Below, one piece after another: positions 18,429 to 64,000 of a stretch of DNA of 64,000 nucleotides (positions are counted from its first letter, which is position 1; the number at the start of each line of letters is the position of its first letter). Source of the DNA: Dehalococcoidia bacterium (GTDB lineage: Bacteria; Chloroflexota; Dehalococcoidia; Bin125); the NCBI GenBank assembly GCA_965203995.1, contig OZ241962.1, forward strand, positions 1,610,311-1,674,310. The letters run 5' to 3'. A program made the translations under genes and the position numbers. The notes beneath the pieces were generated by a model, which did no database searches, was not told the DNA's origin, and saw only the letters and a list, made by a program, of their open reading frames with translations.

Positions 18429-18485
18429 CCCATTGCCGACGATAAACTCGACCGAGCACAGATTGCGGTGCGGTCTCTCTAGGCG

Positions 18486-18932: not shown

Positions 18933-18946
18933 GACCGGAGGGAACG

Positions 18947-26889: not shown

Positions 26890-27073
26890 TCGACACCATT
26901 GGCGCCCACCCCCTGTTCCTACCTGGCAGGGGCGAGGGGTGGGCGTGGTCAACGAGGTGAAGAGTTACCACCAGCTTGACTAACTTGACGGGCTGTGACT
27001 GACTCCAGAGATCGCTCGCTCGGATCTCAACTTCAACTTCACGTAGGCGATCCCCCGGAAGGTTACTCGCCAC

Positions 27074-27797: not shown

Positions 27798-27973
27798 AAG
27801 ACCATCGTCGCCCGGCCAATCCCCAACCCATGGGCGCTGTCCTCAAGGAGGAACTTCTCGGCAGATCTAGGCAAAGCGGTCTCCGCGGTCCAAATCCAAT
27901 GGAAGCGGGGTTCACCTGATACCCAAGTCACGACCAAGCCATCTGCTCCCTCAGGCACAACGCTCGAACTCCA

Positions 27974-47955: not shown

Positions 47956-50118
47956 ATGACCGACAAGCCGCCTCCCGGCGGAGCGCTGGCGTGGATCGCC
48001 CGGCGGCCAGGCAGTAGACGGAGACATAGCGTCGGCGCGCTGGTCGTGATCGGTAGCGTCCTCGCCGCCTGGCTGCTGGCCGGCTCGCTCGTCCAGTCAC
48101 AGTCGCCTCCGCTGGCGCTTACGCTGAGCGGACCGGACACCTGCGAGAACGACGCCGCCACGGACTATCTCCCAGGCGCGGTGCGTGCACCCGAGGTTGA
48201 GATCGAATGGAGCGTGAGCGGCGGAACCCCGCCCTACCAGGTGATGATTCACGGAGCCCGCCACACCGGGGCGATAGGGCGCGCCTCGGTGGTCTGCGCC
48301 GTCTGGTCGGACGAGTGGCGCTCGGCCTCGGGCGATATCGCGGTGGCGGCGACCGTCACAGACGCCGGAGGGCGCCGAGCGTCGGCGGTGCACGATATCT
48401 ACAGCATCCGTTCCTACCGCGAGATGGGCCACCAGTCGGCGGTCAACGCCGCCTACCGCACACACCGCCTGTACGGGGGCGGCACCTACCGGGTCCACGG
48501 GCGCCTGTGGACCCTCCCCGAGGACCGCCCCGTCCACATGCGCGAACACCTCTCCGCCGATTGCGCATCGCCGGGTCCCGACTGCCGCGATCGGTTTCGC
48601 CTGGAGATGTACGAGTCGAGCGGATCGGACCATAGCCAGGGCTACATCTGGATCTATCGCTGGAGCGGAACGGAGCACTCGCGGTGGCTCGACAGCTCGA
48701 TCGGGCGGCACGGCGTCCTGATCCTCGCCGACGATCCGGACGCCGTGGTTCCCGGATACGAGCGCCGCGCCAACGAAGCGTTCGACCGCTTGCTGGAGTC
48801 CCGCGGCCGGCCGCCGGACCGGCTGGTCGCGGCGGCGGCCGGCGCGCACAGCGGTCGACTCTCGATCACGTTGACCATGCCGCGGCTCTGCAGGAGCGGC
48901 TCGTTCCGCGAGGACAACGGACTGCCGGTGCGCTGGGAGGTCGAGGGCGGCGCGCCGCCCTACGACGTGACGATTGGCGGCGCTCGCTACCTGGGCCGGG
49001 AGGGGCTGCACTGGATCAAGTGCGGATTCGAGCCGGGCCGGGCGCTGGACTCGGGCGTGCGCACGCTCCAGGCGGTCGCGGTCGACAGCCGGGGAGACAG
49101 CGCGTCCGATCACGCAGACATGGTCGTCGTCCGCCGATTCTTACCCGGCCACTGGCAGGTCGAGCACCTGACAGCGGGCCGCACCTACCTGCTCGGCAAC
49201 TGGTTCGGCACGCCGCCCGCGGGCGCCCAGGTCCGCTTGGTCGCTCCGTTCTCCGAGGAGCGGTTCTGCCCGCCTGCGGATGCCGGAGGAGAGGAACGGC
49301 TCTGCGACTACGACATGCACTTCGAAATCGAGGCGGACGGCGCGATCGGGACGCTCACGCTCGGGGCGCGGGCGGGCGACGAGTACGCCCGCGCGCTGCC
49401 CGCCCGCGCCCCGCTGGCCCTGGCGCGCGCGATCGACGGGTTCGTCGCTTCGGTCGGCCGCCACCCCCGCGTCGGCGAGGACTTCCGCGACGCATCGGCT
49501 GAGCCTCGGTTTCGCTGGCTGGCCGACCCCGGCGAATGCTCGCCCGGCGGATCGGTGCGGGTCCACGTGCGGGCGACGGGAGGCCAGTGGTGGCCGCTCT
49601 CGACGATCGAGCTAGGCGACCAGGAGGTACGCCTGCAGAACAGCGCGCGGGGCGACTCGGCATCGTTCTGGGTGAACTGCGGCGACGCGGCGCGGCCCTT
49701 GGAGTTGGAGCTCCGGGCGACGGAACTGCGCTTCTCGCCGTTTGAGCGGGTAACCACGGTCGCCGAGTCGAAGGTCCTCATCGGCGCGCGAGGTGCGGAC
49801 CAGGACCCGCACGACAACGACATCTACACCCAGGTTGATCTCGGCATGGAGCACGGCGTGTGCGTCGCTGGGGAACCGTTTCCACTCGAGTGGCAGGTGC
49901 GTCCCGCTCGCGGCCAGGAGGGCCGTATCAGCGTGACGATTGACGGGGTTGTCGGCGTTCACGGCGGCCTGGACGCCGTGCAGTTGCGCTGCGCCGAGCC
50001 GCCCGGACCGCACCGCATCACGCTGCGGGTCCGGGCGGAGTTCGACACGCCGCAGTTTGAGACGTTGGACATCGTCTATGAGTCGGTCACGGGACGACCG
50101 GAGCGGAGGCCGCGATGA
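47956..50118 (+). CDS. Secreted Cys-motif repeat protein, paralog R1 (720 aa).
   Basis: EWSVSGGTPPYQVMIHGARH..., ATVTDAGGRRASAVHDIYSIR, LYGGGTYRVHGRLWTLP, CRDRFRLEM, YIWIYRWSGTEHSRWLDSSIGRHGVL. Ortholog-like to 36696-38780. It overlaps the next gene by 4 nt. Confidence 0.6.
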   Translation: MTDKPPPGGALAWIARRPGSRRRHSVGALVVIGSVLAAWLLAGSLVQSQSPPLALTLSGPDTCENDAATDYLPGAVRAPEVEIEWSVSGGTPPYQVMIHGARHTGAIGRASVVCAVWSDEWRSASGDIAVAATVTDAGGRRASAVHDIYSIRSYREMGHQSAVNAAYRTHRLYGGGTYRVHGRLWTLPEDRPVHMREHLSADCASPGPDCRDRFRLEMYESSGSDHSQGYIWIYRWSGTEHSRWLDSSIGRHGVLILADDPDAVVPGYERRANEAFDRLLESRGRPPDRLVAAAAGAHSGRLSITLTMPRLCRSGSFREDNGLPVRWEVEGGAPPYDVTIGGARYLGREGLHWIKCGFEPGRALDSGVRTLQAVAVDSRGDSASDHADMVVVRRFLPGHWQVEHLTAGRTYLLGNWFGTPPAGAQVRLVAPFSEERFCPPADAGGEERLCDYDMHFEIEADGAIGTLTLGARAGDEYARALPARAPLALARAIDGFVASVGRHPRVGEDFRDASAEPRFRWLADPGECSPGGSVRVHVRATGGQWWPLSTIELGDQEVRLQNSARGDSASFWVNCGDAARPLELELRATELRFSPFERVTTVAESKVLIGARGADQDPHDNDIYTQVDLGMEHGVCVAGEPFPLEWQVRPARGQEGRISVTIDGVVGVHGGLDAVQLRCAEPPGPHRITLRVRAEFDTPQFETLDIVYESVTGRPERRPR

Positions 50119-52271
50119 GCGCCAAGTTCCCGCGCCGTTGGCTGTGGACCGTTCTCGGGGGCGGCGGCGCGTTGGTGCTGCTTCTGTTCGTCCCGCAGGC
50201 CGGCGGCCAGGAGCCGCTCACGCTTACGCTCACTGCGCCGGCGGGCTGTGAAGCCGACTATGACGAACGGGAGATCGCCCGCAACGTCGACCTGCAGTGG
50301 CAGGTCAGCGGAGGTCAGGAGCCGTTTTCTGTCGCCATTGACGGCGTTGCGTACACGGGTGAGCGGGGCCTGGCGCAGACCATCTGCGGCATCTGGGACG
50401 AGACCGATCCGTCCCTCGTCGACTCGGGGCTGATGAGCTTCAACGCCCAGGTGCGGGACGCCCGCGGCGAGCAGGCGACCGCCGTCGCCTACACCTACGC
50501 CGTCCGGGTGATCCGCGCCGACGGCCGTCCCAACGACTACCCGGTCGGCCTCAACGCGGGGCGAACCTACCGGGTGCACGGGATGCTCTTGACGATGCCC
50601 GAGGAGTTCGGCCTGATCATGGGCCCCTATCACAGCGCTGCCTGCGCCGATCCCGTAAACGCCGATGCATGCGCTGATGAGTTCCAACTCCGCGCGGGCA
50701 GGTGGTCCGATCAGCCGCCCTACATCTGGCTGCGGCGCTGGAGCCGGGACGAGGCGCGCCGGGCGCTGGCTCCGCTGCACGAGTATTCCGCCGACGAGGT
50801 CGCCGACTATTTCGATCGACTGGTCGCGTCGATCGGGCGGCCGCCGCCCCCGGTCCCCGGAGCGACCAGCATCGGCGAGGACTCCAGCGATCTGCGGATC
50901 GAGCTCTTCGCTCCCCGGATCTGCGAGGCGTACTGGGGTCGTTACGGCGGGACCCGGCAGTCGATCCCGGTCGAGTGGCGCGTGAGCGGCGGCGCGGCGC
51001 CCTACCAGGTCGAGATCGGCGGCGAGCGCTTCAAGGGCGAGTCAGGTGAGATCTCCGTGGCTTGCGGGCGCGCGAGCACGGATCGCACCGGCGTCGACTC
51101 CCAGCTCATGGCGGTTCAGGCGAGCGTCACCGACGCCCGCGGCGGCCGGGCGTCGGGCGTGGTCAACACCTACGTCATCGCAGCAAGAAGATTCGGGGAC
51201 GACCGCCTGCGCGCCGGCTGGACGCACCGGGTCCAGGGTCTGCTCATGACGATCCCAGAAGGGCTGCAGTTCGACGTTGAGTACTTCGGCTCGACGCTGG
51301 TCGATTGCGAACCCGACGAGCCGGAAGAGGAGGCGGAACCTGAGTCCGGCCTGGACGCGGGCGGCGCCGTCCTGGCCCAGAGCGGACTGCCGCCCGCCGA
51401 CCGCGAGAGCGACCGCTACCGCTGCCAGAACTTCTGGTCGATGAGCGGCGAATGGATGATCGCCGGTCACCGGGGCAGCGTCTGGGTCGGATTCGGCGAA
51501 ACGACCAACGATGTCTCCGACTACGGCGTGGAACTGGACGACGGATCGGCCGGTCGCGCCGGCGCCGAGCAGGCGCTGCAGGAGGCGGAGCGCCGCGTCT
51601 GGCGGTTGGCCCACTCGGTGGGCAAGCCGCCGGAGCTGCCCGAGGCCGGGAACTTCAACCCAGCCCCGCTGCGCATTCGCGCCTGGGCGGAACCGCTGGC
51701 CTGCGGCTGGCTGCACGAAGGCCACCGCCGGAGACAGGCGAGCGCGCAGCGCCGGGTGAGCGGCGGAGCCTGGTGGCCGCTCGGCATCGGAGACGAAGCC
51801 TGGTCGAGCACGCATCGCCACGCCAACCTGGACTGTCCGGCGACGCTCGGGCCGCACCAATCGGTGCTTGAGACCCACGAAAGTGGTCCCGATCCCGCAA
51901 CGGTCGAAGCGACCGTCACGCACTACGCCGTGCCGGTGGTCGCCTCAGGCGACCTCAGCGGCTCCGGTCAAGGTTGGCCGACCAGCTACTGCAGGCCCGG
52001 CGGCGAGCGGAGTATCAGGTGGAGCGTGAGCGGCGGCTCGGGCGCCTACCGGGCGCGGGTGAGCGGCGCCGATGTCGACATGGAGTACCACCCGGAACTT
52101 GGCTATGGAGACGGATGGGCCCAGGTCAGATGCACGAACCGCCTGGGCCTCCAGGCGATGACGGTCGCGGTCTGGGTCGAGGCCGAACCCGGCAACCGGC
52201 TCGTCTTTCCCGTCTTGTTGATGGCGGTCGAAGAGCATCCCTCTGGACGGCCGTGGTCGGACTTCGAGTGA
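50115..52271 (+). CDS. Secreted Cys-motif repeat protein, paralog R2 (718 aa).
   Basis: CEADYDEREIARNVDLQWQVSGGQEPFSVAIDGVAYTGERG..., YTYAVRVIRADG, GRTYRVHGMLLTMPEEF, CADEFQLRAGRWSDQPPYIWLRRW. Most similar to 34387-36699. Confidence 0.6.
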   Translation: MSAKFPRRWLWTVLGGGGALVLLLFVPQAGGQEPLTLTLTAPAGCEADYDEREIARNVDLQWQVSGGQEPFSVAIDGVAYTGERGLAQTICGIWDETDPSLVDSGLMSFNAQVRDARGEQATAVAYTYAVRVIRADGRPNDYPVGLNAGRTYRVHGMLLTMPEEFGLIMGPYHSAACADPVNADACADEFQLRAGRWSDQPPYIWLRRWSRDEARRALAPLHEYSADEVADYFDRLVASIGRPPPPVPGATSIGEDSSDLRIELFAPRICEAYWGRYGGTRQSIPVEWRVSGGAAPYQVEIGGERFKGESGEISVACGRASTDRTGVDSQLMAVQASVTDARGGRASGVVNTYVIAARRFGDDRLRAGWTHRVQGLLMTIPEGLQFDVEYFGSTLVDCEPDEPEEEAEPESGLDAGGAVLAQSGLPPADRESDRYRCQNFWSMSGEWMIAGHRGSVWVGFGETTNDVSDYGVELDDGSAGRAGAEQALQEAERRVWRLAHSVGKPPELPEAGNFNPAPLRIRAWAEPLACGWLHEGHRRRQASAQRRVSGGAWWPLGIGDEAWSSTHRHANLDCPATLGPHQSVLETHESGPDPATVEATVTHYAVPVVASGDLSGSGQGWPTSYCRPGGERSIRWSVSGGSGAYRARVSGADVDMEYHPELGYGDGWAQVRCTNRLGLQAMTVAVWVEAEPGNRLVFPVLLMAVEEHPSGRPWSDFE

Positions 52272-52640
52272 TCGATGCAATCGGCCGGTGCTGGCCGGAG
52301 TGCAGCCCCAATCGGACGCGGGGAACCGAGCACGGCGCCGGGCAGTCGGCGGCAAAACTGGTCGCGGTCGAGGAAGCGCCAGAGCGTCAGACGCGAGTCC
52401 CCGAACCGCTCCGCCGTGCGCTGCTGGCCGTGGCTCCGGGTCGAGGCGTTGAGGTAGTCCCGGATCGCGTCGATGCGCGCGGCGGCGGCGCAAGCGGGAT
52501 GTCGCCGCTGGACGAAGAGCGATCTCCGTCCACGGGGAGGCGCTCGACGCTGCGGCGCCGGGAAGCCCGCCCGCTTGTCCGTCGGTTCTCACCTAGTCGG
52601 CCTGCCGGCGTCTTGGCGTCAGTGCCGAATCTGCATCCAG

Positions 52641-52660
52641 ATTGCATGACAACTGATACG
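52641..52660 (+). promoter_or_regulatory. Conserved upstream motif (copy 1 of 3) ATTGCA(T/C)..(A/C)AAC(A/T)..TAC, about 110-120 nt before each adhesin-like gene start.
   Basis: ATTGCATGACAACTGATACG here, CAATTGCATCCAAACATCTACGCAG at 55045-55069, and CAATTGCACATGAACATCTACTGACG at 58300-58325. The spacing to the start codon is similar in all three. It contains a TTGCAT -35-like hexamer. Confidence 0.4.
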
Positions 52661-52781
52661 GATGCACACCCACCATTGCTTGCACCTGTTGGATAATCCG
52701 AGATCAAACCGTGTCGCTCCGGGACCGCGAGGGGCCGACGAGACGCTCGGCGCGGCCGAGTCGCAGGAAAGCAGGGTGTGA

Positions 52782-54905
52782 ATGACCAGTCGCAGCGACC
52801 GCCGATCGTTCCGTCCGCAGACCCCCCCCCCCCCCGCAGATAGCGCCCCCGCTAGGCTAGCCCGCCGGCTCTTCCCGCTCCCCCTCCTGGCCGCCGCGCT
52901 GGTCGCACTGGCGGTCGTTTTCGTCCACGACGCCCGGCCAACCCAGGCGCAGAGCAGCACCATCTGGTCCGCCACACTGACAGTGGCAGATCTGGGCGAC
53001 GGCGTTCTCGGGTGCAATACCACCGCTGGCTGCTCCGGCGCGCTCACGGACAACGACCTCTGGTATGGCGACACGTACCATGAGATCGAACAAGTCCTCG
53101 GGCCCGGCCAGCTCACGTTCACCCTCAGCAATAGAGATTCACTCAAACGTACCCTTTTTTCGTCCGGCACGTTGACCGTAGGAGACAGAGAGTTTCCCCT
53201 GACAGGCGCGCAGCGGGGTACCTTCGGTGTCAGTGGCGTCCAGTTGATTTGGGCTTCTGCCGGTCTGAGTTGGAGCGCCGGCGACACGGTGCAGCTGAGC
53301 CTGGAGGTCGAGCCCCTGGAGGTCACGGTCAGCGCCGACGGCCCGCTGCGCGAGGGCGGCCCGCCGGTGAACGTGACCTTCACTCTGGACCGGCCGGCCC
53401 CGCGCAACCTGCACGCCACGCTGGGCCACAACGACTCGGTCCGCTTCAACGCCGACGGCCCGCGCTTCGCCGTCGGCCAGACGAGCGCCGTGATGCAGCT
53501 CAGCGTGCCCCAGGACCAGATCGACAACAACTGCCGCACGCTTCACTTGCAGGTCTGGTTCCTGCCCCACGTCCACGGCGCGCAGCTGCAGGCCGACGTC
53601 GGCTTCAGCGTGATCGACGACGACGGTGCGGCGGACACCTGCTCCGGCCTGCTCGGCTCGCCCTACCCCACCCAGCTGTCGCTGCAGTTCGTGGAAGCCA
53701 GCCGCTGGACCGAGAAGATCCGGGTCACCTTCCTCGCCCAGCTGGACCGGCCGCCGCTCAACCGCAACGTCGTCTCGGTCAGCGCCAGCAGCGATACGAT
53801 CATCCAGCGCGACGGGTTTTCCGGCGCAGACGGCAACTACTACTACGTCCCCCGCGACCGGTTCTCGATCTGGGCGCCTCACACCGTCCCCAAGTACACG
53901 GACGACCGGGGCACCCACGACTGGCCGATCGAAATCTGGATCTGGGACTCCGTCCCCGATCACGCCAGCATCACCCTGGAAGCGACCACGCAGTTCCCGG
54001 CGCTGAGCATCACGGCGCCTGTCTTGGTGAACGCCATGCGAGGGCTGGCCGACCGCCAGAGCAGCCCCGGCATCGTGCCGGAGGGGGGCGGCAGCCCCGG
54101 TACGGACAGCGATGTGGGCGTCGTCCACAACCCGAATCCCGGGAACGACTACGCGGCCCTGATCGCCGATGTGCAGCTCTGGCGCGACGACCCCTGCTGC
54201 GCGAGCAACCAGGCCCACACCGACCGCTGGGACCGGGTCCTGCTGGCCCTCGGCGAGTCGGTCGCCGACGCCTCGCTGGAGCCGATGACGGCCGCGGAGG
54301 CGCAGGGCTTCGCCGACCGCGGCTGGACGCGCTGGGTGAACGTCGCCGCCGTGCTGCAGCAGATCGAGGGCGTCAGGCAGATCCTCGCGCTGATCGAGTC
54401 CCAGGGGCCGCAGCCGGATCAGGAGCCGGCCGTCGATCCCCAGCCGCCGCCGAACCAGGCGCCGACGGTCTCGGCGGCGCCGGCCGACGTGAGCGGCCTC
54501 GAGGCGGGCGCGACGCGCGAGGTCTCGCTGGCCGGGGTCTTCCACGACGCCGACGGCGACGCGCTGACGATCACGGGCGGTCCCGACGACGACCAGGTCG
54601 TCACGGTCGAGCTGGCTTCCGACGGCTCCAAGCTGACCCTGACCGGCGTCTCCGAGGGCGCGGCGATCGTGCTCGTCTTCGCCCAGGACCCGTCCGGCGC
54701 GTCGGTGTTCACCGAGTTCAACGTGACCGTGGTCGCGGCGCCGGAACCGGCGGCATCGCTGACGGGGGCGGCCGCCCGCTACGACACGGACGCGAACGGC
54801 AAGATCGACCTCTCCGAGTACCGTCGGGCGCTCAACGACTACGTCGCCCGCACGATCAGCTATACGGAGCTGCTCGAGGTCGTGACCGCCTACCAGGCCT
54901 CCTGA
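52782..54905 (+). CDS. Secreted adhesin-like surface protein 1 (707 aa) with an N-terminal poly-Pro stretch encoded by a poly-C tract and a C-terminal Ig-like module plus a dockerin/EF-hand-like Ca-binding loop.
   Basis: Signal ...RRLFPLPLLAAALVALAVVFVHDARP. C-terminal DTDANGKIDLSEY loop. The last 470 nt or so are near-identical to the 3' end of the next gene. Confidence 0.7.
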   Translation: MTSRSDRRSFRPQTPPPPADSAPARLARRLFPLPLLAAALVALAVVFVHDARPTQAQSSTIWSATLTVADLGDGVLGCNTTAGCSGALTDNDLWYGDTYHEIEQVLGPGQLTFTLSNRDSLKRTLFSSGTLTVGDREFPLTGAQRGTFGVSGVQLIWASAGLSWSAGDTVQLSLEVEPLEVTVSADGPLREGGPPVNVTFTLDRPAPRNLHATLGHNDSVRFNADGPRFAVGQTSAVMQLSVPQDQIDNNCRTLHLQVWFLPHVHGAQLQADVGFSVIDDDGAADTCSGLLGSPYPTQLSLQFVEASRWTEKIRVTFLAQLDRPPLNRNVVSVSASSDTIIQRDGFSGADGNYYYVPRDRFSIWAPHTVPKYTDDRGTHDWPIEIWIWDSVPDHASITLEATTQFPALSITAPVLVNAMRGLADRQSSPGIVPEGGGSPGTDSDVGVVHNPNPGNDYAALIADVQLWRDDPCCASNQAHTDRWDRVLLALGESVADASLEPMTAAEAQGFADRGWTRWVNVAAVLQQIEGVRQILALIESQGPQPDQEPAVDPQPPPNQAPTVSAAPADVSGLEAGATREVSLAGVFHDADGDALTITGGPDDDQVVTVELASDGSKLTLTGVSEGAAIVLVFAQDPSGASVFTEFNVTVVAAPEPAASLTGAAARYDTDANGKIDLSEYRRALNDYVARTISYTELLEVVTAYQAS
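52822..52835 (+). repeat. Homopolymeric C14 tract inside the 5' coding region (encodes PPPP). Candidate slipped-strand phase-variation site.
   Basis: Counted directly: ...gcagaCCCCCCCCCCCCCCgcagatagcgcc.... In frame as sequenced. Confidence 0.8.
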
Positions 54906-54910
54906 CCCGG
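54434..54910. repeat. Block of about 477 bp near-identical (about 95% by eye) to 57664-58140. It covers the shared C-terminal coding module and the stop codon of adhesin-like genes 1 and 2.
   Basis: Side-by-side comparison of the two 3' ends: AACCAGGCGCCGACGGTCTCGGCG... through ...GTCGTGACCGCCTACCAGGCCTCCTGACCCGG. Confidence 0.75.
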
Positions 54911-55174
54911 GCCGCTCCGGCTCGGAGATCGAGCCGGGGTGATGCGGCACGGGTCGCGGCCATGCACTCAGCCTGGGCGCGCGGGTGCGCACACAATCCG
55001 GTTCGAGTGCGCCGCCCGAGCGGACAACTGCGGGCGACCCTTCGGACTACACGGCAATTGCATCCAAACATCTACGCAGCGCCACAACATGTATCGGCCG
55101 GATGTAAGAAACTGGCGAGGCGATTCTGGGTCCGCTGCATCCGGCGGATGCCCGCATCGCCCAAGTGATCGCCG

Positions 55175-58135
55175 TTGCACGGAAGGTGGCCGCCGATGAT
55201 CGAACGCCTGGATCGCGCCGCCTTGCTTGAGCGCTCACGCCGCCTGAGCGCGGCCCTGCCCCCCCCCCCCGCAGATAGCGCGCCCGCGCGGCTAAGCCGC
55301 CGGCTCTTCCCGCTTCCCCTCCTGGCCGCCGCGCTGATGGCGCTGGCGGTCGTCTTCGTCCACGACGCCCGGCCCGCCTCCGCCGATCACGAGCACACCA
55401 CCATCCTCTGGCACGCAACCTTGACGGTGGGATCAACAGGCGGGTCCGGGTGCTCTGTTGGCGTCGATGACTGCCGCGAACTGCTCACCGATACTCGATT
55501 CACCTATGAGGGTGCGACCTACACCGTCACAAACGTGGACAATGAACGCGATGTAGTAAGCGCTAAGTTCATCTTCTGGCTCGATAAGGCGCTGCCGGCC
55601 AGCTTGCTCTCCGCCGGGACGCTCTACGTCGACGGCAGGGCGCTCAGCCTGGCGGATTTCAGGCATGACGCTGACGTTAGCCGCTTCCATTTGGTAATGC
55701 GCCCGTCGCCGCGAATACCGCAGTGGGAGCCGGGCGACAAGGTGCTTCTCACCCTCAGCGGGCCGCGCCCGCCCGCCTGGTCCGCCACGCTGTCACCGAG
55801 CGATCTCTCCAACTTCAGCGGAACAGGCTTCGGTTGCCAAGATGGCTTCCTGGGCTGTTCGCAAGTTCTCACCGGTAGTAACACCTTCACTTACAACGGG
55901 ACTTCCCACACGATCGACACGATTAAGGTGGACGGCGGTGTCCTTACCTTTGCGACCGATCTTGGGCAGAGCGGCTTGCGGGAATTGACGTTGAATGTGG
56001 ACGGAACGGCGTTCCCCCTTGCCGACGCCGCGTCCAACCAGTGGAGCAACACCGGCCTGACCTGGAGCAGCGGCGGTTCGGTCGAGCTGAGCCTGACCGG
56101 GCCGCCCCCGACGGGCGTGGAGATCTCGCCCAACACCCTGAACGTCACCGAGGGCGACACTGGCACCTTCACGGTCGCCCTGACCTCCGATCCCGGGACG
56201 GACAAGACCGTGCAACTGGTCACGACGCAGTTCTTCCAATCCGCGGGCGAGCCGGGCCACGTCTGGGACAAGAACGCCGTCACGGTCTTGCCGGTGACAA
56301 TGACCTTCACCGCGGGCTCCTCCGGCAACTGGGCCACGCCCCAGACCGTGACGGTGCGCGCCCCCGGGGACGCCGACGTCACGAACGAGCAGTTGATCAT
56401 CCATGTGTTTGAGCAAAAGTCGTCCTACGGCTTCGTCCAGTGCATCGGCGCAGGCGACTACGACTACAACGGCGTCACGCACGTCTACCACGGCAACGGC
56501 GACGGCGACTACTGCAGCGCGCAACTCTTCGACCACGGGCCCGTGGGCGGCGTCTACAACGCGGTCAACGGCGTCCACGTGACGGTCGCCGACAGCGGCG
56601 TCAACTTCGTGATCGAGCCGCCGACCGGCGTCGAGGCCCACGCCGGCAGAGCCCTGATGTATGACTCACATGGGAACGACCAGGGGCGCTGGCTGGCGCG
56701 CTTCTCTTGGGATGCGCCCGGCGGCTCGATTACGGTGACCGGCTACGACTTCCAGTGGCGCCGGGAGGGCGGCGCCTGGCCTGCGGGTGCGACCTCCCTG
56801 AGCGCCTCGGACACGAGCCGCATCATCCGGCCCAACCTCGGCAACTTCGTCAACCAATCGCGGGGCACGGTGCTCGGCTACCGCGTGCGCACGCGCACCG
56901 CCGACGGCGCGAGCCCGTGGATCGAGGGGACGCTGACCCTGGACAACCCCGCCAACCTGGTGCGCGACCTGCTCGTGCTCCCGGGAAACGCCGGCGAGCT
57001 GAGTCTGTCCTGGTCTGCTCCCGCCGGCTGGCCGGCCACGGACTACGAGGTGCAGTACAAGGTCGCCGGGGCCTCCAACTGGATGTCCTCCGACCCGGAG
57101 AAGGGCTGGGTCGACGCGAACTACACCGGCGGCACCGACCAGCTCATGACGATCCCGAACCTGAAGGACGGCACCGCCTACGCGGTGCGCGTGCGGGCGA
57201 AGAGCGACTGGGACTTCCGCTGGACGGTCGCCCAGGGCACGACCTCGGGCACGGCGCCCGCTATCGGCGGGTCCGGCGGCACGGACGGCGACCTCGGCGT
57301 CGTCCACAACCCGAATGCGCAGAACGAGCACGCCGGCCTGATCGCGGATGTCAGGCAGTGGCGCGACGACCCCTGCTGCGCCCACAACTCAGCTCACACC
57401 GACCGCTGGGACCGCGTCCTGCTGGCCCTGGGCGAGTCGGTCGCCGACGCCTCGCTTGAGCCGATGACGGCCTCGGAGGCGCAGGACCTCGCCGACCGCG
57501 GCTGGAGCCGCTGGACGGGCGTGGCCGAGGCGCTGCGCGAGCTGGAAGCGGCCGCCCAGAACGATCCGGTTCCGCCCGCGGTCGGCCCGGATCCGGGCGA
57601 CTCCTCAGGGGACTCGCCAGGGTCACCCGGCGATGCGCCGGACGAGGGACCGGGCGACGGGCCGGAACCGGCCAACCCTGCCAACCAGGCGCCGACGGTC
57701 TCGGCGACGCCGGCCGACGTGAGCGGCCTCGAGGCGGGCGCGACCCGCGAGGTCTCGCTGGCCGGGGTCTTCCACGACGCCGACGGCGACGCCCTGACGA
57801 TCACGGGCGGTCCCGACGACGATCAGATCGTCACGGTTGAGGTGGCTTCCGACGGCTCCAGGCTGACGCTGACCGGCGTCTCCGAGGGCACGGCGATCGT
57901 GCTCGTGTTCGCCCAGGACCCATCCGGAGCGTCGGTCTTCACCGAGTTCAACGTCACCGTCGTGGCGGCCCCGGAACCGGCGGCATCGCTGACGGGGACG
58001 GCCGCCCGCTACGACGCCGACTCGAACGGCAAGATCGACGTCTCGGAGTACCGCCGGGCGGTCAACGACTACGTCGCGCGCACGATCAGCTATACGGAGC
58101 TGTTGGAGGTCGTGACCGCCTACCAGGCCTCCTGA
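55175..58135 (+). CDS. Secreted adhesin-like surface protein 2 (986 aa) with Fn3-like domains, the shared C-terminal Ig-like/dockerin-like module, and a poly-C-encoded poly-Pro N-terminus.
   Basis: Signal ...RRLFPLPLLAAALMALAVVFVHDARP. Fn3-like segments (...ELSLSWSAPAGWPATDYEVQYKVAG...AYAVRVRAKS). A central block GTD.D.GVVHNPN...DDPCC...HTDRWDRVLLALGESVADASLEPMTA shared with gene 1. Confidence 0.7.
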   Translation: MHGRWPPMIERLDRAALLERSRRLSAALPPPPADSAPARLSRRLFPLPLLAAALMALAVVFVHDARPASADHEHTTILWHATLTVGSTGGSGCSVGVDDCRELLTDTRFTYEGATYTVTNVDNERDVVSAKFIFWLDKALPASLLSAGTLYVDGRALSLADFRHDADVSRFHLVMRPSPRIPQWEPGDKVLLTLSGPRPPAWSATLSPSDLSNFSGTGFGCQDGFLGCSQVLTGSNTFTYNGTSHTIDTIKVDGGVLTFATDLGQSGLRELTLNVDGTAFPLADAASNQWSNTGLTWSSGGSVELSLTGPPPTGVEISPNTLNVTEGDTGTFTVALTSDPGTDKTVQLVTTQFFQSAGEPGHVWDKNAVTVLPVTMTFTAGSSGNWATPQTVTVRAPGDADVTNEQLIIHVFEQKSSYGFVQCIGAGDYDYNGVTHVYHGNGDGDYCSAQLFDHGPVGGVYNAVNGVHVTVADSGVNFVIEPPTGVEAHAGRALMYDSHGNDQGRWLARFSWDAPGGSITVTGYDFQWRREGGAWPAGATSLSASDTSRIIRPNLGNFVNQSRGTVLGYRVRTRTADGASPWIEGTLTLDNPANLVRDLLVLPGNAGELSLSWSAPAGWPATDYEVQYKVAGASNWMSSDPEKGWVDANYTGGTDQLMTIPNLKDGTAYAVRVRAKSDWDFRWTVAQGTTSGTAPAIGGSGGTDGDLGVVHNPNAQNEHAGLIADVRQWRDDPCCAHNSAHTDRWDRVLLALGESVADASLEPMTASEAQDLADRGWSRWTGVAEALRELEAAAQNDPVPPAVGPDPGDSSGDSPGSPGDAPDEGPGDGPEPANPANQAPTVSATPADVSGLEAGATREVSLAGVFHDADGDALTITGGPDDDQIVTVEVASDGSRLTLTGVSEGTAIVLVFAQDPSGASVFTEFNVTVVAAPEPAASLTGTAARYDADSNGKIDVSEYRRAVNDYVARTISYTELLEVVTAYQAS
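55259..55270 (+). repeat. Homopolymeric C12 tract in the 5' coding region of adhesin-like gene 2.
   Basis: ...gcggccctgCCCCCCCCCCCCgcagatagcgcg.... It encodes LPPPPA, in frame as sequenced. Confidence 0.8.
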
Positions 58136-58436
58136 CCCGGGGCCGCGGGCGGGCACGGCGGATCGCATCCCTGCGTGCGTCGACGCGGACGGCAACGCCC
58201 TGAGGATGGGGGAAGACGGCGCTCGCGCGCCAGTGCGCTTCCCGACTGACCTCGATCTCTGTTCCCTACTGCTGCGTGAGTCGGCCTGGTCGCACACAGC
58301 AATTGCACATGAACATCTACTGACGTTCACAGATTCTAAGGCAGTCGTGCTTGAGAATTGCACTCGGAAGCGGATCTGGTCCAGTGCATCGTCGCCCTGC
58401 GCTTCAGGTGCGATCGAGGTTGAAGGTCAGCAGGGT

Positions 58437-61400
58437 ATGTATGTTCTCTCGCCGCGAGCGTCGAGCGCTCGAACCTCAACTTCCGACCCCCCCCCCCCGC
58501 AGTTACGCCACTCTCGTTCTAATCTGGCCCGACGACGCCCCTCGCTTCCGCTCCTCGCCCTCGCGCTGCTCGCGCTAGCCCTGTTCGCCGCGGACGGCGC
58601 GCCGCCCGCGCAGGCGCAGAGCCCCGTCGAACTGGTGACTAACAAGGGTCAGTCATCCAGCGCTCTCCGTCACGATTGGAACGACGCATTCGGCTTGATC
58701 ATCTTCACGGGCGCCGGCAACGCGGGGAAAACCTACACGCTGACGAAGATTCGTGTCTTCCAGAACAGCGCCATGGGCAACACCGCTGCATTCAGAGCGG
58801 AGTTGTGGTCCGGCAGCAATACCGAGTTCGTGCCGGTTGAGAAGATCACCGACCTGACGATCACGGCCGTCGACGGGGTTAGTGCCGTCGATCTCGTGGC
58901 GCCCGAGGGCACCGTGCTCCAGGGGAACGACAGGTACGCCCTGGTGGTGTACCGGGTGGCCGGCTTTAGCGCCACCGGTTGGACATACGCGGCGACGGTA
59001 TCGCCGTCGGAAACCAGCAGTCTCGGGTGGCGTCTCGGGAACAACCGCAAGGCGACCTCTAGCCCCCCGACCAGCTCTTCGACGTGGGGAGACCCCGGAG
59101 ACACCGTTTTCGTCAGAATCCCCAAGATCACCGTCTTCGGCTTCGAGGGCGTGCTGCCGACGGTCACGCTGACCTCGGACGACGCCGACGGCGAGATCGC
59201 GGAGTCGGCCGGGTCGGTGACGCTGACGGCGACTCTGAGCGAGGCGGCGCCCAGCGGCGGGGTGAGCGTGACGCTCTCGAAGGCCAGCGGTACGGCGACG
59301 GCGACGGACGACTACTCGCTCTCGTCGGCGACGATCACGATCGCCCAGGGCGACACCACCGGCACGACGAACCTGAACATCGTCGACGACGCGGTGGCCG
59401 AGGGCGATGAGACGCTGGTGCTGAAAGCCGCCGCGAGCGGTCACACCTCGGGGTCGCTGAGCCTGACGATCAAGGACAACGATGCGCTGACCCAGTCCTC
59501 GAACGCGGACCTGTCGGCGCTGACGGTGAACACGAGCACCGACGACTCCGACTTCACGACATCGCTGACGCTGGACCAGACCTTCGCGGCAATCACGACG
59601 AGCTACACGGCCACGGTGGGGAACCTGGTCACGCACGTGAAGGTGACGCCGACGGTGGACGACACGGGCAAGGCGGCGGTGAAGGTCGGTCCCAGTGGCG
59701 GCACGCTGACGGCGGTGACCGACGCCACGGCGTCGGCGTCGATCGCACTGGACGTGGGCTTGAACGCGATCGAGGTGGAGGTGACCGCGGAGGACTCCTC
59801 GACGAAGACCTATGTGGTGACGATCCTCCGCTACCCCGCGAACCTTTTGGTGAGCAACGTGGCGAAGGCCTCGGCTCAGAGTGTGACCACCAGCAACTCC
59901 GCCCATGCCGTCGGGTTCGAGACCGGTTCGAACTCCGCGGGCTACACGCTGTCGAGCATCGACGTGGTGATGGAGGGCGAGCCGACCTCGGCTGAGCGCG
60001 ACACCATCGAGGCGGAGCTGTGGTCCGCGGCCAGCAACGGCCGGCCCGACGACAAGATCGCCGACCTGGCGGTGCCGGCGCATCCGATCGCGCCGGGCGT
60101 GGTGTCGTTCACCGCGCCGGCCAGCACCACGCTGACGGCGAGCACCGAGTACTTCCTGGTGGTGCACACGACGGGGACCTTCAACATGGGGCTGGACACC
60201 ACGGAATCCACCGGCGAGGACTCCGCCGGCGTCCCGGGCTTCAGCATCGACGACGACCAAGTCTACGTCAGCCCGGGCACCCAGCCGGACTCGTCCACGA
60301 CGTGGACGCGCTCGGCGACGGGCCTGGTGGTGAGAATCCACGTCACGGGCACCGCCAACACCGCGACGCTGTCGTCGAACGCGGACCTCTCCGCCCTGGC
60401 GGTGAACACCAGCACCGACAACTCCGACTTCATGACGTCGCTGACGCCGGTCCCGGCGTTCGCGGCGGCCACCACGGCCTACACGGCGTCGGTGGCGAAC
60501 GCGGTCACCCACGTGAAGATCACGCCGACGGTGGACGCGACGGGCAAGGCGGCGGTGAAGGTGGGTCCGAGCGGCGGCACGCTGACGACGGTGGCCGACG
60601 CCACGGCGTCGGCATCGCTCGCCCTGAGCGTGGGCTTGAACGTGATCGACGTGGAGGTGACCGCCGAGAACCTCTCGACGAAGACGTACACGCTGACGGT
60701 CGTCCGGCACCCGGCGAACCTGCTGGCCAGCAACCTCGGGCAGCAGCCCGACGGCAGCTTCCGGGGCACGTCGGGCTTCGCGCACGCCCAGGGCTTCCGC
60801 ACCGGCAGCAACGCCGGGGGCTACACCCTGGCGGGGGTGACGGCGGTGATCGGCAGCGACCCGACGTCTGCGCAGCGCGACACGATCCGCGCGGAGCTGT
60901 GGTCCTGGGACAACGGGCCCGGCGAGAAGCTGGCCGACCTGACGGTGCCGGCCCATCCGATCACGGCGGGCCTGGTCGGGTTCGCGACGCCCCCGGGCAC
61001 CGTGCTCGATCCCGAGACCCGGTACTTCTTCGTGCTCTACACCACCACGGGCTACGCGCTGCAGTTCGGGACGACGAGCTCCGGCGGCGAGGACGCCGCG
61101 AGCGCCACGGGCTGGACCCTCTTCGACAACCGCCACTCCGTCAACGTGAACGAACCGACCTCGTCCACGACGTGGACCCGGCAGGCGTCCACCACCGCGC
61201 TGCGGCTCACGATCGCGGGCGCGCAGCGGAGCCTGGCGACGATCGCCGACCTCTCCGCGCTGGCGGTGAACACGAGCACCGACAACTCCGACTTCACCGC
61301 GTCGCTCGTGCCGGTCCCGGCGTTCGACGCGGCCACGACCGTCTATACGGCGTCGGTCGCCAACGACGTCACCCATGTGAAGGTGACGCCGACGGCGGAG

Positions 61401-64000
61401 GCCGCCGGCCAGGCGACGCTGAAGGCGGGCAAGCGGGGCACGACGCTGGCGGCGGTGACCAGCGGCTCGCCGTCGGCGTCGATCGCCCTTGACGTGGGCG
61501 CCAACGTGATCGAGGTGGAGGTCACCTCCGGCGACACCAACACGACGACGACCTACACGGTCACGATCATCCGGCACCCGTCGGATCTGCTGCTGAGCAA
61601 CCTCGGCCAGCTGCCCGCCGCGGACTCCGCGACCACGAACAACTTCGCCCACGCCCAGGGGTTCTGGACCGCCGGCCAGAGCTACACGCTATCGAGCATC
61701 TCGGTGGTGCTGGGCGGCAGCCCGACCCAGGCCCAGCGCAACACCATCCACGCCGAGCTGTGGTCGGGGAACAGCACCGGTCCGACCGCGGAGGTGGCCG
61801 ATCTGACGGTGCCGGACCATCCGATCACGCCGGGCGTCGTGACGTTCACGGCCCCCGCCAACACCGCCATGATGGCGAACAGCCGCTACTTCCTGGTGCT
61901 CTACACCACCGGCAGCTACGACGTGGAGCTGGGCACGACGGACTCGACGAGCGGCGACGACGCCAGCGCCGCGGGCTGGTCGGTGTTCGCCAACCGCCAC
62001 TACGTCAGCCCGGGGACGGGGCCGAGCTCGTCCACGATGTGGACCACGCGGTCGGCCACCGGCGGCATCAGGCTGACCGTCGCGGGCACGGGCCAGGCCG
62101 TCCAGTCGTCGAACGCCGACCTCTCCGCCCTGACGGGGAACACGAGCGAGGACAACTCCGACTTCACGGCGTCGCTGACGCTCTCCCCAGCCTTCGCGAC
62201 GGGCACCACCGGCTACCGGGCGGGAGTGGCGAACGCCGTCACGCACGTGACGCTGACGCCGACGGTGGCCGACACCGGCAAGGCCACGGTCGAGGTGGGC
62301 ACGAGCGGCAACTTGACGAGCGTGAGCGACGGGACGGCGTCGGCGTCGATCGCCCTGGCCGTGGGCGACAACGCCATCATCGTCAAGGTCACCGCCGAGG
62401 ACGGCTCGACGACCCGGGAGTACACGGTCACGGTAACGCGGCACCCGGCCAACATGCTGGTGAGCAACTTCGGGCAGGCGGATGGCGCGAGCGGCCACTT
62501 CAACACCAACGAGTTGGTTCTCTCCCAGGGGTTCACGACGGGCGCCCACAGCGGGGGCTACACGCTGGCGGCCATCGATGCGGCCGTGGCGACCCTCTCG
62601 TCGGGCTTCGACCGGACGACCCTCCGGGCCGAGCTGTGGTCGGCCGCCTCCGGCGGCGGGCCGGACGCGAAGCTCTACGAGCTGACGGTGCCGAGCAGTG
62701 TGGCGGTGGGCGCCGTCTCCTTCGAGGCGGAGTCGAACGCCGCGCTCGCCGCGAGCACGTCCTACTACCTGGTGGTCTACACGACCGACGCCGGCAACCG
62801 GCTTGGAGTCACGACAACCGACTCCCCCGGCGAGGACGGCGGCAGCCTGTCCGGCTGGAGCATCGAGAATGACTGGTGGGACCAGGAGGTGAACGTGCCG
62901 GGCGGGGGGAGCTGGGGCGAGACAGACAACGAGAGCTTCAAGATCCGCGTCAGGGGCACGGCGGGCAGCACGGCGCTGCCCGCGCCGACGGGCCTGTCGG
63001 TGACGGCGGGCGACTCCAAGCTCGACCTCACCTGGACGGCGCCCTCGGGGGCGGTGAGCTTCGACGTGCACTACACGTCGGACAACGCGACCGACACCGC
63101 GGATGGCGCGGCGGTGCAGACCGGCATGAGCGCGAGCGCGGCGGACGGCTGGGTGGACGCGAGTCACACCGGCATGGACGCGTCGGACGAGATCACGGGC
63201 CTCGACAACGGCACCGACTACCGCGTTCGGGTGCGGGCCGTGAACGCCGCCGGCGACGGCGCGTGGGCGCACCAATCGGGCAGACCCGCGGCGCAGGTCG
63301 CGCTGTCCACGAACGCCGACCTCTCCGCCCTGGCGGTGAACACGAGCGAGGACAACTCCGACTTCACGGCGTCGCTGACCCTGGACCAGACCTTCGCGGC
63401 GGCGACGACGAGCTACACGGCCACGGTGGGCAACGCGGTCACCCATGTGAAGCTGACGCCCACGGTGGACGACACCGGCAAGGCGACGGTGGAGGTGGGC
63501 AAGAGCGGCAGCGAGGCCTCGGTGACCGACGGGACGGCGTCGGCGTCGATCGCCCTGGACGTGGGCGACAACGCGATCAACGTGAAGGTCACCGCCGAGG
63601 ACACCACCACGACCACGACCTACACGGTGACGGTCACGCGCCGCCCGGCGGCGCCGACGAACCTGCGGGCGAAGGCGGGCGACGCGAAGCTCGACCTGAC
63701 CTGGACGGCCCCGGCGGGCACGCTGACGGGCTACGACGTGCACTACACCTCCGACAACGCCACCGACACCCCCAACGACGCGGCCGTGCAGGGCGGGTCC
63801 AACCCCAGCGCGGCGGACGGCTGGGTCGACGCCGGGCACACGGGCACGACGGCCTCGGACGAGCTCACGGGCCTGACCAACAACACGCCCTACCGCGTGC
63901 GGGTGCGGGCCACGGCCGGCGCGGCGAACGCGGCGGGCGCCTGGCTGCACGGCTCGGGCCGCCCGGCGATGCCGGTGGTGCCGACGGTCTCGCTCTCGGT
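58437..64000 (+). CDS. Giant secreted adhesin-like protein 3 (at least 1854 codons; runs off the window end) with a Calx-beta domain, repeated cadherin-like beta-sandwich modules and Fn3 domains. It is not in the ORF track.
   Basis: Manual translation in frame 58437 reads without a stop codon to the window end: MYVLSPRASSARTSTSDPPPPQLRHSRSNLARRRPSLPLLALALLALALFAADGAPPAQAQ... (signal peptide). A Calx-beta-like block (VTLTATLSEAAPSGGVSVTLSKASGTATATDDYSLSSATITIAQGDTTGTTNLNIVDDAVAEGDETLVLKA). At least six cadherin-like modules (NADLSALAVNTSTDNSDFTASL...THVKVTPTVDDTGKA.VKVG.SG......ASIALDVG.N.I.V.VTAED.ST.TYTVT..R.P). Fn3 modules (LDLTWTAP...YDVHYTSDNATDT...YRVRVRA). Confidence 0.7.
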   Translation, partial: MYVLSPRASSARTSTSDPPPPQLRHSRSNLARRRPSLPLLALALLALALFAADGAPPAQAQSPVELVTNKGQSSSALRHDWNDAFGLIIFTGAGNAGKTYTLTKIRVFQNSAMGNTAAFRAELWSGSNTEFVPVEKITDLTITAVDGVSAVDLVAPEGTVLQGNDRYALVVYRVAGFSATGWTYAATVSPSETSSLGWRLGNNRKATSSPPTSSSTWGDPGDTVFVRIPKITVFGFEGVLPTVTLTSDDADGEIAESAGSVTLTATLSEAAPSGGVSVTLSKASGTATATDDYSLSSATITIAQGDTTGTTNLNIVDDAVAEGDETLVLKAAASGHTSGSLSLTIKDNDALTQSSNADLSALTVNTSTDDSDFTTSLTLDQTFAAITTSYTATVGNLVTHVKVTPTVDDTGKAAVKVGPSGGTLTAVTDATASASIALDVGLNAIEVEVTAEDSSTKTYVVTILRYPANLLVSNVAKASAQSVTTSNSAHAVGFETGSNSAGYTLSSIDVVMEGEPTSAERDTIEAELWSAASNGRPDDKIADLAVPAHPIAPGVVSFTAPASTTLTASTEYFLVVHTTGTFNMGLDTTESTGEDSAGVPGFSIDDDQVYVSPGTQPDSSTTWTRSATGLVVRIHVTGTANTATLSSNADLSALAVNTSTDNSDFMTSLTPVPAFAAATTAYTASVANAVTHVKITPTVDATGKAAVKVGPSGGTLTTVADATASASLALSVGLNVIDVEVTAENLSTKTYTLTVVRHPANLLASNLGQQPDGSFRGTSGFAHAQGFRTGSNAGGYTLAGVTAVIGSDPTSAQRDTIRAELWSWDNGPGEKLADLTVPAHPITAGLVGFATPPGTVLDPETRYFFVLYTTTGYALQFGTTSSGGEDAASATGWTLFDNRHSVNVNEPTSSTTWTRQASTTALRLTIAGAQRSLATIADLSALAVNTSTDNSDFTASLVPVPAFDAATTVYTASVANDVTHVKVTPTAEAAGQATLKAGKRGTTLAAVTSGSPSASIALDVGANVIEVEVTSGDTNTTTTYTVTIIRHPSDLLLSNLGQLPAADSATTNNFAHAQGFWTAGQSYTLSSISVVLGGSPTQAQRNTIHAELWSGNSTGPTAEVADLTVPDHPITPGVVTFTAPANTAMMANSRYFLVLYTTGSYDVELGTTDSTSGDDASAAGWSVFANRHYVSPGTGPSSSTMWTTRSATGGIRLTVAGTGQAVQSSNADLSALTGNTSEDNSDFTASLTLSPAFATGTTGYRAGVANAVTHVTLTPTVADTGKATVEVGTSGNLTSVSDGTASASIALAVGDNAIIVKVTAEDGSTTREYTVTVTRHPANMLVSNFGQADGASGHFNTNELVLSQGFTTGAHSGGYTLAAIDAAVATLSSGFDRTTLRAELWSAASGGGPDAKLYELTVPSSVAVGAVSFEAESNAALAASTSYYLVVYTTDAGNRLGVTTTDSPGEDGGSLSGWSIENDWWDQEVNVPGGGSWGETDNESFKIRVRGTAGSTALPAPTGLSVTAGDSKLDLTWTAPSGAVSFDVHYTSDNATDTADGAAVQTGMSASAADGWVDASHTGMDASDEITGLDNGTDYRVRVRAVNAAGDGAWAHQSGRPAAQVALSTNADLSALAVNTSEDNSDFTASLTLDQTFAAATTSYTATVGNAVTHVKLTPTVDDTGKATVEVGKSGSEASVTDGTASASIALDVGDNAINVKVTAEDTTTTTTYTVTVTRRPAAPTNLRAKAGDAKLDLTWTAPAGTLTGYDVHYTSDNATDTPNDAAVQGGSNPSAADGWVDAGHTGTTASDELTGLTNNTPYRVRVRATAGAANAAGAWLHGSGRPAMPVVPTVSLS
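58487..58498 (+). repeat. Homopolymeric C12 tract in the 5' coding region of giant adhesin gene 3, immediately downstream of overlapping start codons ATGTATG.
   Basis: ...ttccgaCCCCCCCCCCCCgcagttacgcc.... With 12 Cs the ATG at 58437 is in frame. With 13 Cs the overlapping ATG at 58441 would be in frame. The ORF-track ORF 58351-58578 is the out-of-frame reading from ATG 58441. Confidence 0.75.

Follow-up and report, generated by a model that had tools for sequence, protein, structure and literature searches.

Poly-C tracts at the start of three consecutive secreted-protein genes in an uncultured Dehalococcoidia bacterium: candidate contingency loci

Why should three consecutive genes of a G+C-rich bacterium each carry an uninterrupted run of 12 or 14 cytosines a short way past the start codon? 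The question is raised by a 64-kb stretch of DNA from an uncultured member of the Dehalococcoidia (contig OZ241962.1, positions 1,610,311 to 1,674,310), here called the window, by which we mean the whole stretch that was analysed; coordinates are window positions unless another locus is named. The genes, referred to as genes 1 to 3, all lie on the plus strand and begin with a leader and a signal peptide. A preliminary description of this DNA had proposed them as candidate contingency loci, a proposal supported by length polymorphism of the tracts between relatives, by truncated gene calls, by stops that quickly follow in the wrong frames and by conservation of the tract position in 24 genes. 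Judging from these sequence comparisons, we consider it probable that an on/off switch operating by slippage explains the three tracts.

Poly-C tracts and reading frames in the window

The three genes and their tracts are as follows.

Gene 1, 52782-54905, plus strand: 707 aa; extended leader, signal peptide (RRLFPLPLLAAALVALAVVF...AQA-QS), variable middle and conserved C-terminal module.
Gene 2, 55196-58135, plus strand: 979 aa, secreted, with fn3; identical to database protein P0008.
Gene 3, 58437-64000, plus strand: more than 1854 aa, running off the window; Calx-beta, Glucodextran_B, fn3 and five Cadherin-like domains.
Tract of gene 1, 52822-52835, plus strand: C14, read as T-PPPP-A, in frame with ATG 52782.
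Tract of gene 2, 55259-55270, plus strand: C12, read as PPPP, in frame.
Tract of gene 3, 58487-58498, plus strand: C12, in frame with ATG 58437.

Tract lengths and positions are exactly those given in the preliminary description, which was also right that each tract encodes PPPP, as read in the N-termini of all three proteins, and that the organism is of high G+C content (65.7% in the window). It had placed the tracts 40-85 nt after the start; the distance from the ATG is 40, 63 and 50 nt in genes 1, 2 and 3, respectively, and 84 nt in gene 2 when counted from TTG 55175.

These are the sole C or G runs longer than 8 in the window. The number of C runs drops about 4.5-fold with each additional base, down to one C7 and one C8, and the longest G run is 6. 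Because the distribution ends at 8, three runs of 12-14 lie far beyond chance. The longest C run besides the three tracts is the C8 at 10547-10554, part of an interrupted C-rich run (ACCCCCCCCTCCCCCG, 10546-10561; C8 then C5) in an intergenic region, about 360 nt upstream of a CoA-transferase gene (10917-13298); it may be the remnant of a decayed tract or have arisen by chance.

The tracts occupy equivalent positions, after a start codon preceded by a sequence resembling a Shine-Dalgarno (SD) site and just 5' of the signal peptide, and the N-termini follow one pattern of a short variable peptide, a proline run and a typical signal peptide (MTSRSDRRSFRPQT-PPPP-ADSAPARLARRLFPLPLLAAALVALAVVFVHDARPTQAQS in gene 1, MIERLDRAALLERSRRLSAAL-PPPP-ADSAPARLSRRLFPLPLLAAALMALAVVFVHDARPASA in gene 2 and MYVLSPRASSARTSTSD-PPPP-QLRHSRSNLARRRPSLPLLALALLALALFAADGAPPAQAQS in gene 3). 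The starts and the stops in the other frames are listed here.

Overlapping starts GTGAATG of gene 1, 52778-52784, plus strand: preceded by SD-like GGAAAGCAGGG.
Start ATG of gene 2, 55196-55198, plus strand: preceded by GGAAGGTGG; starts in one frame only.
Overlapping starts ATGTATG of gene 3, 58437-58443, plus strand: preceded by GCAGGG.
Off-frame stops of gene 1, plus strand: TAG 52841-52843 (+2 frame) and TAG 52858-52860 (+1 frame).
Off-frame stops of gene 2, plus strand: TAG 55276-55278 and TAA 55293-55295.
Off-frame stops of gene 3, plus strand: TAA 58520-58522 and TAG 58576.
Post-tract block CGTTCTAA of gene 3, 58515-58522, plus strand: R-S-N in the ON frame, a TAA stop in one OFF frame.

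The G-rich SD-like sequences before ATG 52782, ATG 55196 and ATG 58437 are GGAAAGCAGGGTGTGA, GGAAGGTGGCCGCCG and GGTCAGCAGGGT, respectively. Genes 1 and 3 each have a second start codon 4 nt from the first and in another frame. In gene 1, GTG 52778 is in frame at C13 or C16 and ATG 52782 at C11, C14 or C17; in gene 3, ATG 58437 is in frame at C12 and ATG 58441 at C10 or C13, and at the present C12 the frame opened by ATG 58441 terminates at TAG 58576. The overlapping ATGs of gene 3 and the dead-end reading from 58441 had both been recognised in the preliminary description, which had missed the analogous GTGAATG of gene 1. No in-frame ATG, GTG or TTG occurs in genes 1-3 between the tract and the core of the signal peptide, and the wrong frames close 1-26 codons past the tract.

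Genes 1 and 2 agree at 96 of 110 nt on the 3' side of the tract, counted from its end through the signal peptide, and at 8 of 40 nt on its 5' side, so the block common to both genes begins at the tract. The near-identical leader of about 110 nt that had been described around the tract therefore exists on its 3' side and not on its 5' side. The same two genes have in common a C-terminal module of about 280 aa (74% identity), with unrelated middles in between; a conserved leader and 3' module around unrelated middles suggests recombination between copies. In the paralogues of the window (54057-54905 and 57626-58135), L001 and L002 (family loci in relatives; see the next section), this 3' module reads WRDDPCCAHN…HTDRWDRVLLALGE…, followed by an Ig-like domain, and the C-terminal end carries a segment resembling an EF-hand or dockerin (ARYDADSNGKIDxSEY…LEVVTAYQAS), whose EF-hand match is below the Pfam threshold.

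Pfam identifies fn3 in gene 2, and Cadherin-like (five copies), fn3, Calx-beta and Glucodextran_B in gene 3; gene 1 has no significant Pfam match. The label 'adhesin-like', given to all three genes beforehand, has domain content as its only basis. The signal peptides of the window genes were read from the sequence, relatives carry Big_2, Big_9 and Cadherin_5, and the products are presumably located at the cell surface. Those of genes 1 and 3 have no exact match in the protein database (best 84% and 78% identity, respectively); P0008, the product of gene 2, lies on a contig of 3,097,899 bp. Either the window derives from a genome absent from the database that has an identical gene 2 in common with this contig, or genes 1 and 3 were called differently on the contig.

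Upstream of each start lies the motif ATTGCANNNNAACNNNTAC (ATTGCA-N4-AAC-N3-TAC), which, with one mismatch allowed, has three matches in the window (52641, 55057 and 58302) and none in 100 shuffles, in agreement with the conserved motif of about 20 nt reported previously. Its 3' end is 122, 120 and 116 nt 5' of the ATG of genes 1, 2 and 3, and a second block follows it.

Motif ATTGCATGACAACTGATAC of gene 1, 52641-52659, plus strand: identical in the L001 and L008 orthologues and paralogues.
Motif ATTGCATCCAAACATCTAC of gene 2, 55057-55075, plus strand: identical at L001 9710 and 12852.
Motif ATTGCACATGAACATCTAC of gene 3, 58302-58320, plus strand: one of the three window matches.
Second block TGTTGGATAAT of gene 1, 52687-52697, plus strand: 46 nt past the motif start; candidate -10-like element, GATAAT.
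Second block TGTAAGAAACT of gene 2, 55103-55113, plus strand: same offset as in gene 1.
Second block TGCTTGAGAAT of gene 3, 58348-58358, plus strand: same offset as in gene 1.

TTGCAT resembles a -35 element, and GATAAT, GAAACT and GAGAAT stand 46 nt downstream, a spacing unlike the 16-18 nt of sigma-70 hexamers. A consensus sigma-70 scan of 52200-58700 found no site, and Dehalococcoidia promoters may differ from the consensus. A sigma-54 site (TGGCAC-N5-TTGCW), compared by eye 5' of the ATTGCA motif, was rejected, the -24 GG being missing in all three genes. The upstream motif is a candidate, as yet unproven, promoter element or regulator site.

Tract length and reading-frame state in relatives

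A region of OZ241982.1, a Dehalococcoidia metagenome-assembled genome (MAG) with a chromosome of 3,151,661 bp, is syntenic with the window and 82-91% identical to it (locus L001). A second orthologous pair comes from two contigs of different ENA assemblies, L013 (a scaffold) and L014. Comparing tract lengths across these relatives, as the preliminary description had suggested for strains or isolates, gave the following.

Gene 1 orthologues: C14 in the window, C12 in L001 (L001 7468-7479).
Gene 2 orthologues: C12 in the window, C20 in L001 (L001 9912-9931), out of frame in L001.
Gene A orthologues: C12 in L013, C9 in L014.
Gene B orthologues: C12 in L013, C10 in L014.

Three of these four differences are not multiples of three; in the remaining case, gene A (C12 to C9), accompanying changes in the flanks also throw the gene out of frame. 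The 40 nt 5' of the tract of the L001 gene 1 orthologue are the same as in the window, as are the tract flanks of the gene 2 orthologue, and a paralogue elsewhere on the OZ241982.1 chromosome (L008) has the gene 1 leader with C13. The dual start ATGTATG recurs in gene A of L013 and L014, that is, in another lineage.

The tract together with its leader is here called a cassette. A genome scan (one genome per species; pattern 'motif, 164-194 nt, C9') returned four cassettes, all on OZ241982.1, besides four single matches in unrelated taxa; the latter, in Acutalibacteraceae, Saprospiraceae, Caulobacter and Bacterioplanoides (four of the seven loci), were discarded as chance matches in unrelated context. 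Searching metagenomes with the sequence immediately 3' of the tract (CCCCGCAGATAGCGCSCCCGC) gave three unrelated chance matches and no more copies. The ATTGCA motif is specific to the lineage of the window and OZ241982.1: L013 and L014 have an ATTGCAY core followed by …ACGGATRC·CAC at a similar distance, and L002 and L015 a different conserved block. The cassettes total 24, with runs of C9-C20 and at least four leader types, distributed as follows.

Window: 3
L001: 4
L008: 1
L002: 1
L013: 3
L014: 2
L015: 4
L016: 1
L017: 5

In 204.5 kb of family loci these cassettes account for 24 of the 26 C or G runs of at least 9, always as poly-C on the sense strand; the two other runs are a G9 at L001 11598-11606 and a G9 at L017 15440-15448 (plus-strand coordinates). 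The former falls within the coding sequence of the orthologue of gene 2 (…LTW-GG-VD…), has no counterpart at the corresponding place in gene 2 of the window, and could be a second slippage-prone site within the gene. The position of the tract is kept in proteins only 36-50% identical, with long intact open reading frames (ORFs) behind it. In nearly all cassettes one of the off frames has a stop within 7 codons of the tract, and the stop-bearing block CGTTCTAR, read as R-S-x in the ON frame, recurs in distant members.

In twelve cassettes, including the three of the window, the stretch from the tract to the hydrophobic core of the signal peptide contains no in-frame ATG, GTG or TTG, so that protein could be made only from a start upstream of the tract. 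Six of the twelve are in frame (window genes 1-3, L013 genes A and C, and the L017 tract at 10041) and six are out of frame (L001 genes 1-3, L008, L014 gene A and the L017 tract at 19389). The out-of-frame alleles are those whose proteins are annotated as N-terminally truncated: P0011 is called from 'MALAVVF…' inside the signal peptide and P0019 from 'MLLAAAL…', and P0012 and P0003 from starts further downstream. On the contig of P0008, the paralogues P0001, P0002 and P0010 are likewise called from inside the signal peptide and P0015 from further downstream; judging only by called starts inside the signal peptide, paralogues on this contig would be in the OFF state. Exact-protein look-ups of P0001, P0010 and P0008 returned no record.

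The nearest relatives of gene 3 start at an internal 'MTR…', a codon that is CAC in the window. This internal start has therefore been lost in the window lineage, leaving expression wholly dependent on the tract. Among gene 3 orthologues, none was found that uses the alternative ATG frame (N-terminus MFSRRERR...), and the closest use their own internal start.

A proposed slippage switch and its alternatives

In the model that we favour, the tracts are hypermutable simple-sequence repeats that separate the translation start from the signal peptide in secreted multi-domain proteins, probably located at the cell surface, and slipped-strand mispairing at replication would add or remove C residues. 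With no usable start separating the tract from the signal-peptide core, the full pre-protein would be obtained only at lengths that restore the right frame, the other frames ending 1-26 codons past the tract. Gene 2 would be a plain one-in-three switch; in genes 1 and 3, two of the three length classes would give product, possibly at unequal levels, and one would give none. The proline run falls in the pre-sequence and is presumably cleaved off with the signal peptide, so that changes in its length should spare the mature protein. Were several genes per genome to switch independently of one another, many combinations of surface proteins would coexist in a clonal population. Recoding of a run to CCGCCACCGCCA would be expected to lock its state.

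Of six features of contingency loci considered, four are found here: the length of the repeat (G/C homopolymers being hypermutable from about 8-9 upwards), its place within the reading frame, length polymorphism among orthologues and gene products of surface type. By inference, the tracts change length often and reversibly within a population, translation begins at the upstream ATGs and the proteins are exposed at the surface. The secreted fn3, cadherin-like and Calx-beta proteins, with conserved ends and variable middles, are of the gene class that classically carries such switches.

Several observations weigh against a simple switch. In 11 of the 24 cassettes (e.g. those of L002, L015 and L016) the gene has its own start past the tract, sometimes with a good SD sequence, so that a frameshift cannot simply abolish expression, and the tract is nonetheless kept. 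The L002 tract belongs to a distinct upstream ORF of 23 codons (uORF; MFDFGNSSRRVRRLLPPPPIFSR*) with its own AGGAG, and the main gene follows with GGGAGG-ATG-ATG and a full signal peptide; in L015, leaders of the L002 type are fused to the main gene either in frame (P0004, with seven prolines) or out of frame. This second layout is the main observation that a plain ON/OFF model leaves partly unexplained, and in such lineages the tract may modulate rather than abolish expression. Furthermore, the genomes compared are only 82-91% identical in this region, a distance at which length differences reflect evolutionary lability rather than switching. Most of the assemblies are long-read-like by their names and coverage (2.7x-20x), and a one-base consensus error in a 12-20-mer, which is plausible, would flip single ON/OFF calls; if OZ241982.1 were under-called by one base, three of its four OFF cassettes would read ON. 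The variation in tract length is consequently to be trusted more than any individual ON/OFF state.

Homopolymers are the weakest point of long-read assemblies, and the length differences might be consensus errors altogether, or useless hotspots in decaying genes. Contig names and coverages do point to long-read metagenome assemblies, some of only 2.7-4.2x (L015, L016). However, differences of 8 (C12 against C20) and 3 (C12 against C9) are beyond plausible consensus error, the scaffold L013, from another study and another assembler, has C12, C12 and C10 at the same positions, and five independent assemblies agree on the presence and position of the tract. Interruptions would be expected to erode neutral hotspots, whereas the position is kept across at least four leader types with long intact ORFs, and we judge artefact or neutrality to be very unlikely. 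A demand for the peptide itself is a somewhat more serious, if still unlikely, alternative. Ribosomes stall on poly-proline unless rescued by EF-P, and the run might be kept for PPPP in a short uORF or N-terminal extension, where stalling would tune downstream translation. Poly-C reads proline in all three frames, the tract always lies within a short frame opened by a start codon with an SD-like sequence before it, and the L002 uORF has similar counterparts in L015, L016 and parts of L017, all of which would suit such a role. Yet all 24 runs are pure C, although outside the tracts proline is encoded by CCG in 61% and by CCC in 35% of cases, and further proline runs in these genes mix their codons; four consecutive CCC would be expected at 0.015 per site. 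Pure-C runs despite a preference for CCG indicate that the homopolymer is a property of the DNA, not a demand of the peptide. Moreover, run length varies from 9 to 20 across orthologues, the peptides before the tract are unrelated between leader types, as between genes 1 and 2, and each window gene is a single continuous ORF without a separate main start, so the frame matters anyway. A poly-proline effect could operate alongside slippage.

Slippage might also occur during transcription: runs of 12-20 identical bases suffice for slippage of RNA polymerase in other bacteria, and stuttering would then provide a constant in-frame fraction of mRNA, with DNA length setting the level of expression and not an on/off state. 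The survival of out-of-frame alleles as apparently intact genes of 600-970 codons would then be accounted for, but intact out-of-frame genes are equally expected under reversible DNA switching, and the observed polymorphism in DNA length is something this idea does not need; we hold it to be quite improbable. Finally, the tract might be a cis-regulatory element at the DNA or RNA level: a promoter spacer of the Bordetella fim or Neisseria porA/opc type, part of a folded leader that hides the G-rich ribosome-binding site, or a site bound by a protein. In Bordetella pertussis fim2 and fim3, poly-C of similar length between promoter elements controls transcription of surface structures in a host of high G+C content, and in 11 cassettes the tract is indeed 5' of a usable start, at closest by 3-10 nt (L013 gene B, L001 tract 4). 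Unlike in fim2 and fim3, however, the window tracts are 40-63 nt downstream of an SD-like sequence and ATG, not between promoter hexamers, and presumably act on the reading frame. Five leaders fold no better than shuffled sequences (z +0.07 to +1.46), with the run mostly unpaired, and scans of the window with Rfam (gathering threshold) and for tRNA found no match. Such a role appears highly improbable for these tracts.

A bolder extension of the slippage switch, which taken as a whole we put forward only tentatively and regard as rather doubtful, is that the motif, ribosome-binding site with one or two starts, poly-C, CGTTCTAR and signal peptide form a portable leader cassette, spread by recombination across an uncultured Dehalococcoidia clade onto non-homologous secreted-protein genes and working as a three-state device. 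In the window lineage it would have a strong-start, a weak-start and an off state; in sister lineages with an internal start, the uORF would be fused to the gene, end just before it or read across it. If this were true, it would amount to a combinatorial, graded surface 'phasome' in a phylum without a described one, possibly driven by phages or hosts; a restriction/TIR defence island is nearby.

Neighbouring genes, known systems and meaning

A gene with GAF, PAS, HisKA, HATPase, receiver and Trans_reg_C domains stands beside cassette clusters at five loci of different lineages (L001 1-1269; L002 7228-9621; L013 12743-15160; L015 912-2183; L017 7021-9399 and 22282-end), the L015 copy having only the HATPase, receiver and Trans_reg_C domains. 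Encoding a histidine kinase joined to a DNA-binding response regulator of the OmpR type, this gene is a candidate for regulating the cassette genes. No GAF-PAS-HisKA kinase-regulator domains were found among the window ORFs scanned. Serpin genes (PF00079) adjoin cassette clusters in two lineages (L013 3364-4710; L017 603-1949), and such a eukaryote-like protease inhibitor hints at a host-associated lifestyle. Similar locus tags may belong to MAGs from sponge metagenomes, a tentative lead to the habitat.

Elsewhere in the window the following genes were noted.

13627-15306, minus strand: large serine recombinase.
16368-18428, 19517-20908 and 21804-25040: hsdM, hsdS and hsdR of a type I restriction-modification system.
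18596-19516: ThsB-like TIR-domain gene, between hsdM and hsdS.
27974-32056: 1360-aa helicase-nuclease (DUF4011/AAA_11/AAA_12/MTES_1575).
34387-38780 (minus strand) and 47956-52271 (plus strand): four paralogues of about 700-770 aa in two tandem pairs, 28-38% identical to each other.
39168-40808, minus strand: Replic_Relax protein (relaxase-like).

Apart from genes 1-3, the window resembles a variable island, and the region 13627-32056 may be an integrated mobile or defence island adjoining the surface-protein genes. The four paralogues begin with N-termini resembling signal peptides, lack both a Pfam match and a poly-C tract, and bear no relation to the cassette family. The pair of 720-aa genes that immediately precede gene 1 (47956-52271) were considered as family members with decayed tracts and rejected, as they belong to this different paralogous family and have no tract.

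Several known switches resemble the one proposed here. In Neisseria pilC the run reportedly lies in the region coding for the signal peptide. As in pilC1/pilC2, nalP, lgtG and pglA of Neisseria, where the G/C run is 9-21 nt long, the tracts described here lie in the 5' part of the reading frame of genes for surface-associated proteins, several per genome. The family range of C9-C20 equals that of the proven genic G/C switches of the Neisseria phasome, such as pilC (G9-20), nalP (C9-13) and lgtG (C10-16) (PMC5953494). The organisms are far apart, an uncultured MAG of the Chloroflexota (Dehalococcoidia) as against Proteobacteria, and the protein families are unrelated; the run here is in an N-terminal extension before the signal peptide, within a leader cassette common to paralogues. 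Switching has been shown by experiment in Neisseria, whereas here sequence comparison makes it probable.

Haemophilus influenzae lic1A and lic2A are said to have starts in several frames upstream of the repeat, so that the number of repeats selects the state of expression. GTGAATG of gene 1 and ATGTATG of gene 3 recall these multi-frame starts, but the repeats there are CAAT and the products enzymes that modify lipopolysaccharide, in contrast to a homopolymer, secreted multi-domain proteins and a putatively graded output here. In the opa family of Neisseria, each copy reportedly has its own repeat in the leader region and switches independently, creating combinatorial surfaces. The cassette family is likewise a multigene family of surface-type proteins with a repeat in each leader-coding region; unlike in opa, where the repeat is a genic pentanucleotide (CTTCT, 7-21; PMC5953494) and the products are small beta-barrels, it combines a homopolymer with large modular beta-sandwich proteins. 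In Listeria monocytogenes inlA, a frameshift in a 5' poly-A tract results in a very short peptide and reversion restores the protein, and homopolymeric tracts in general show a bias towards the 5' end (Orsi et al. 2010, PMC2831843). The homopolymer near the 5' end of a surface-protein gene is common to both systems; the inlA tract is A/T and about 7 nt long, and belongs to a single gene without a common leader cassette or dual starts.

The proposed mechanism is ordinary, and what is new is the host lineage, the leader cassette that runs through the family and its two layouts. In full-text literature searches, no paper turned up that describes phase variation for Dehalococcoidia or for sponge symbionts of the Chloroflexi. 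What is known of phase variation by repeat slippage comes nearly all from cultured animal pathogens and commensals, and here its design occurs many times per genome in complete chromosomes of uncultured bacteria. One practical consequence is that gene callers split or truncate cassette genes, as seen for P0003, P0011, P0012 and P0019, so that the surface proteomes of such MAGs are under-called. If the switch is real, these organisms hedge the composition of their surface, which would imply strong fluctuating selection by phages, hosts or grazers.

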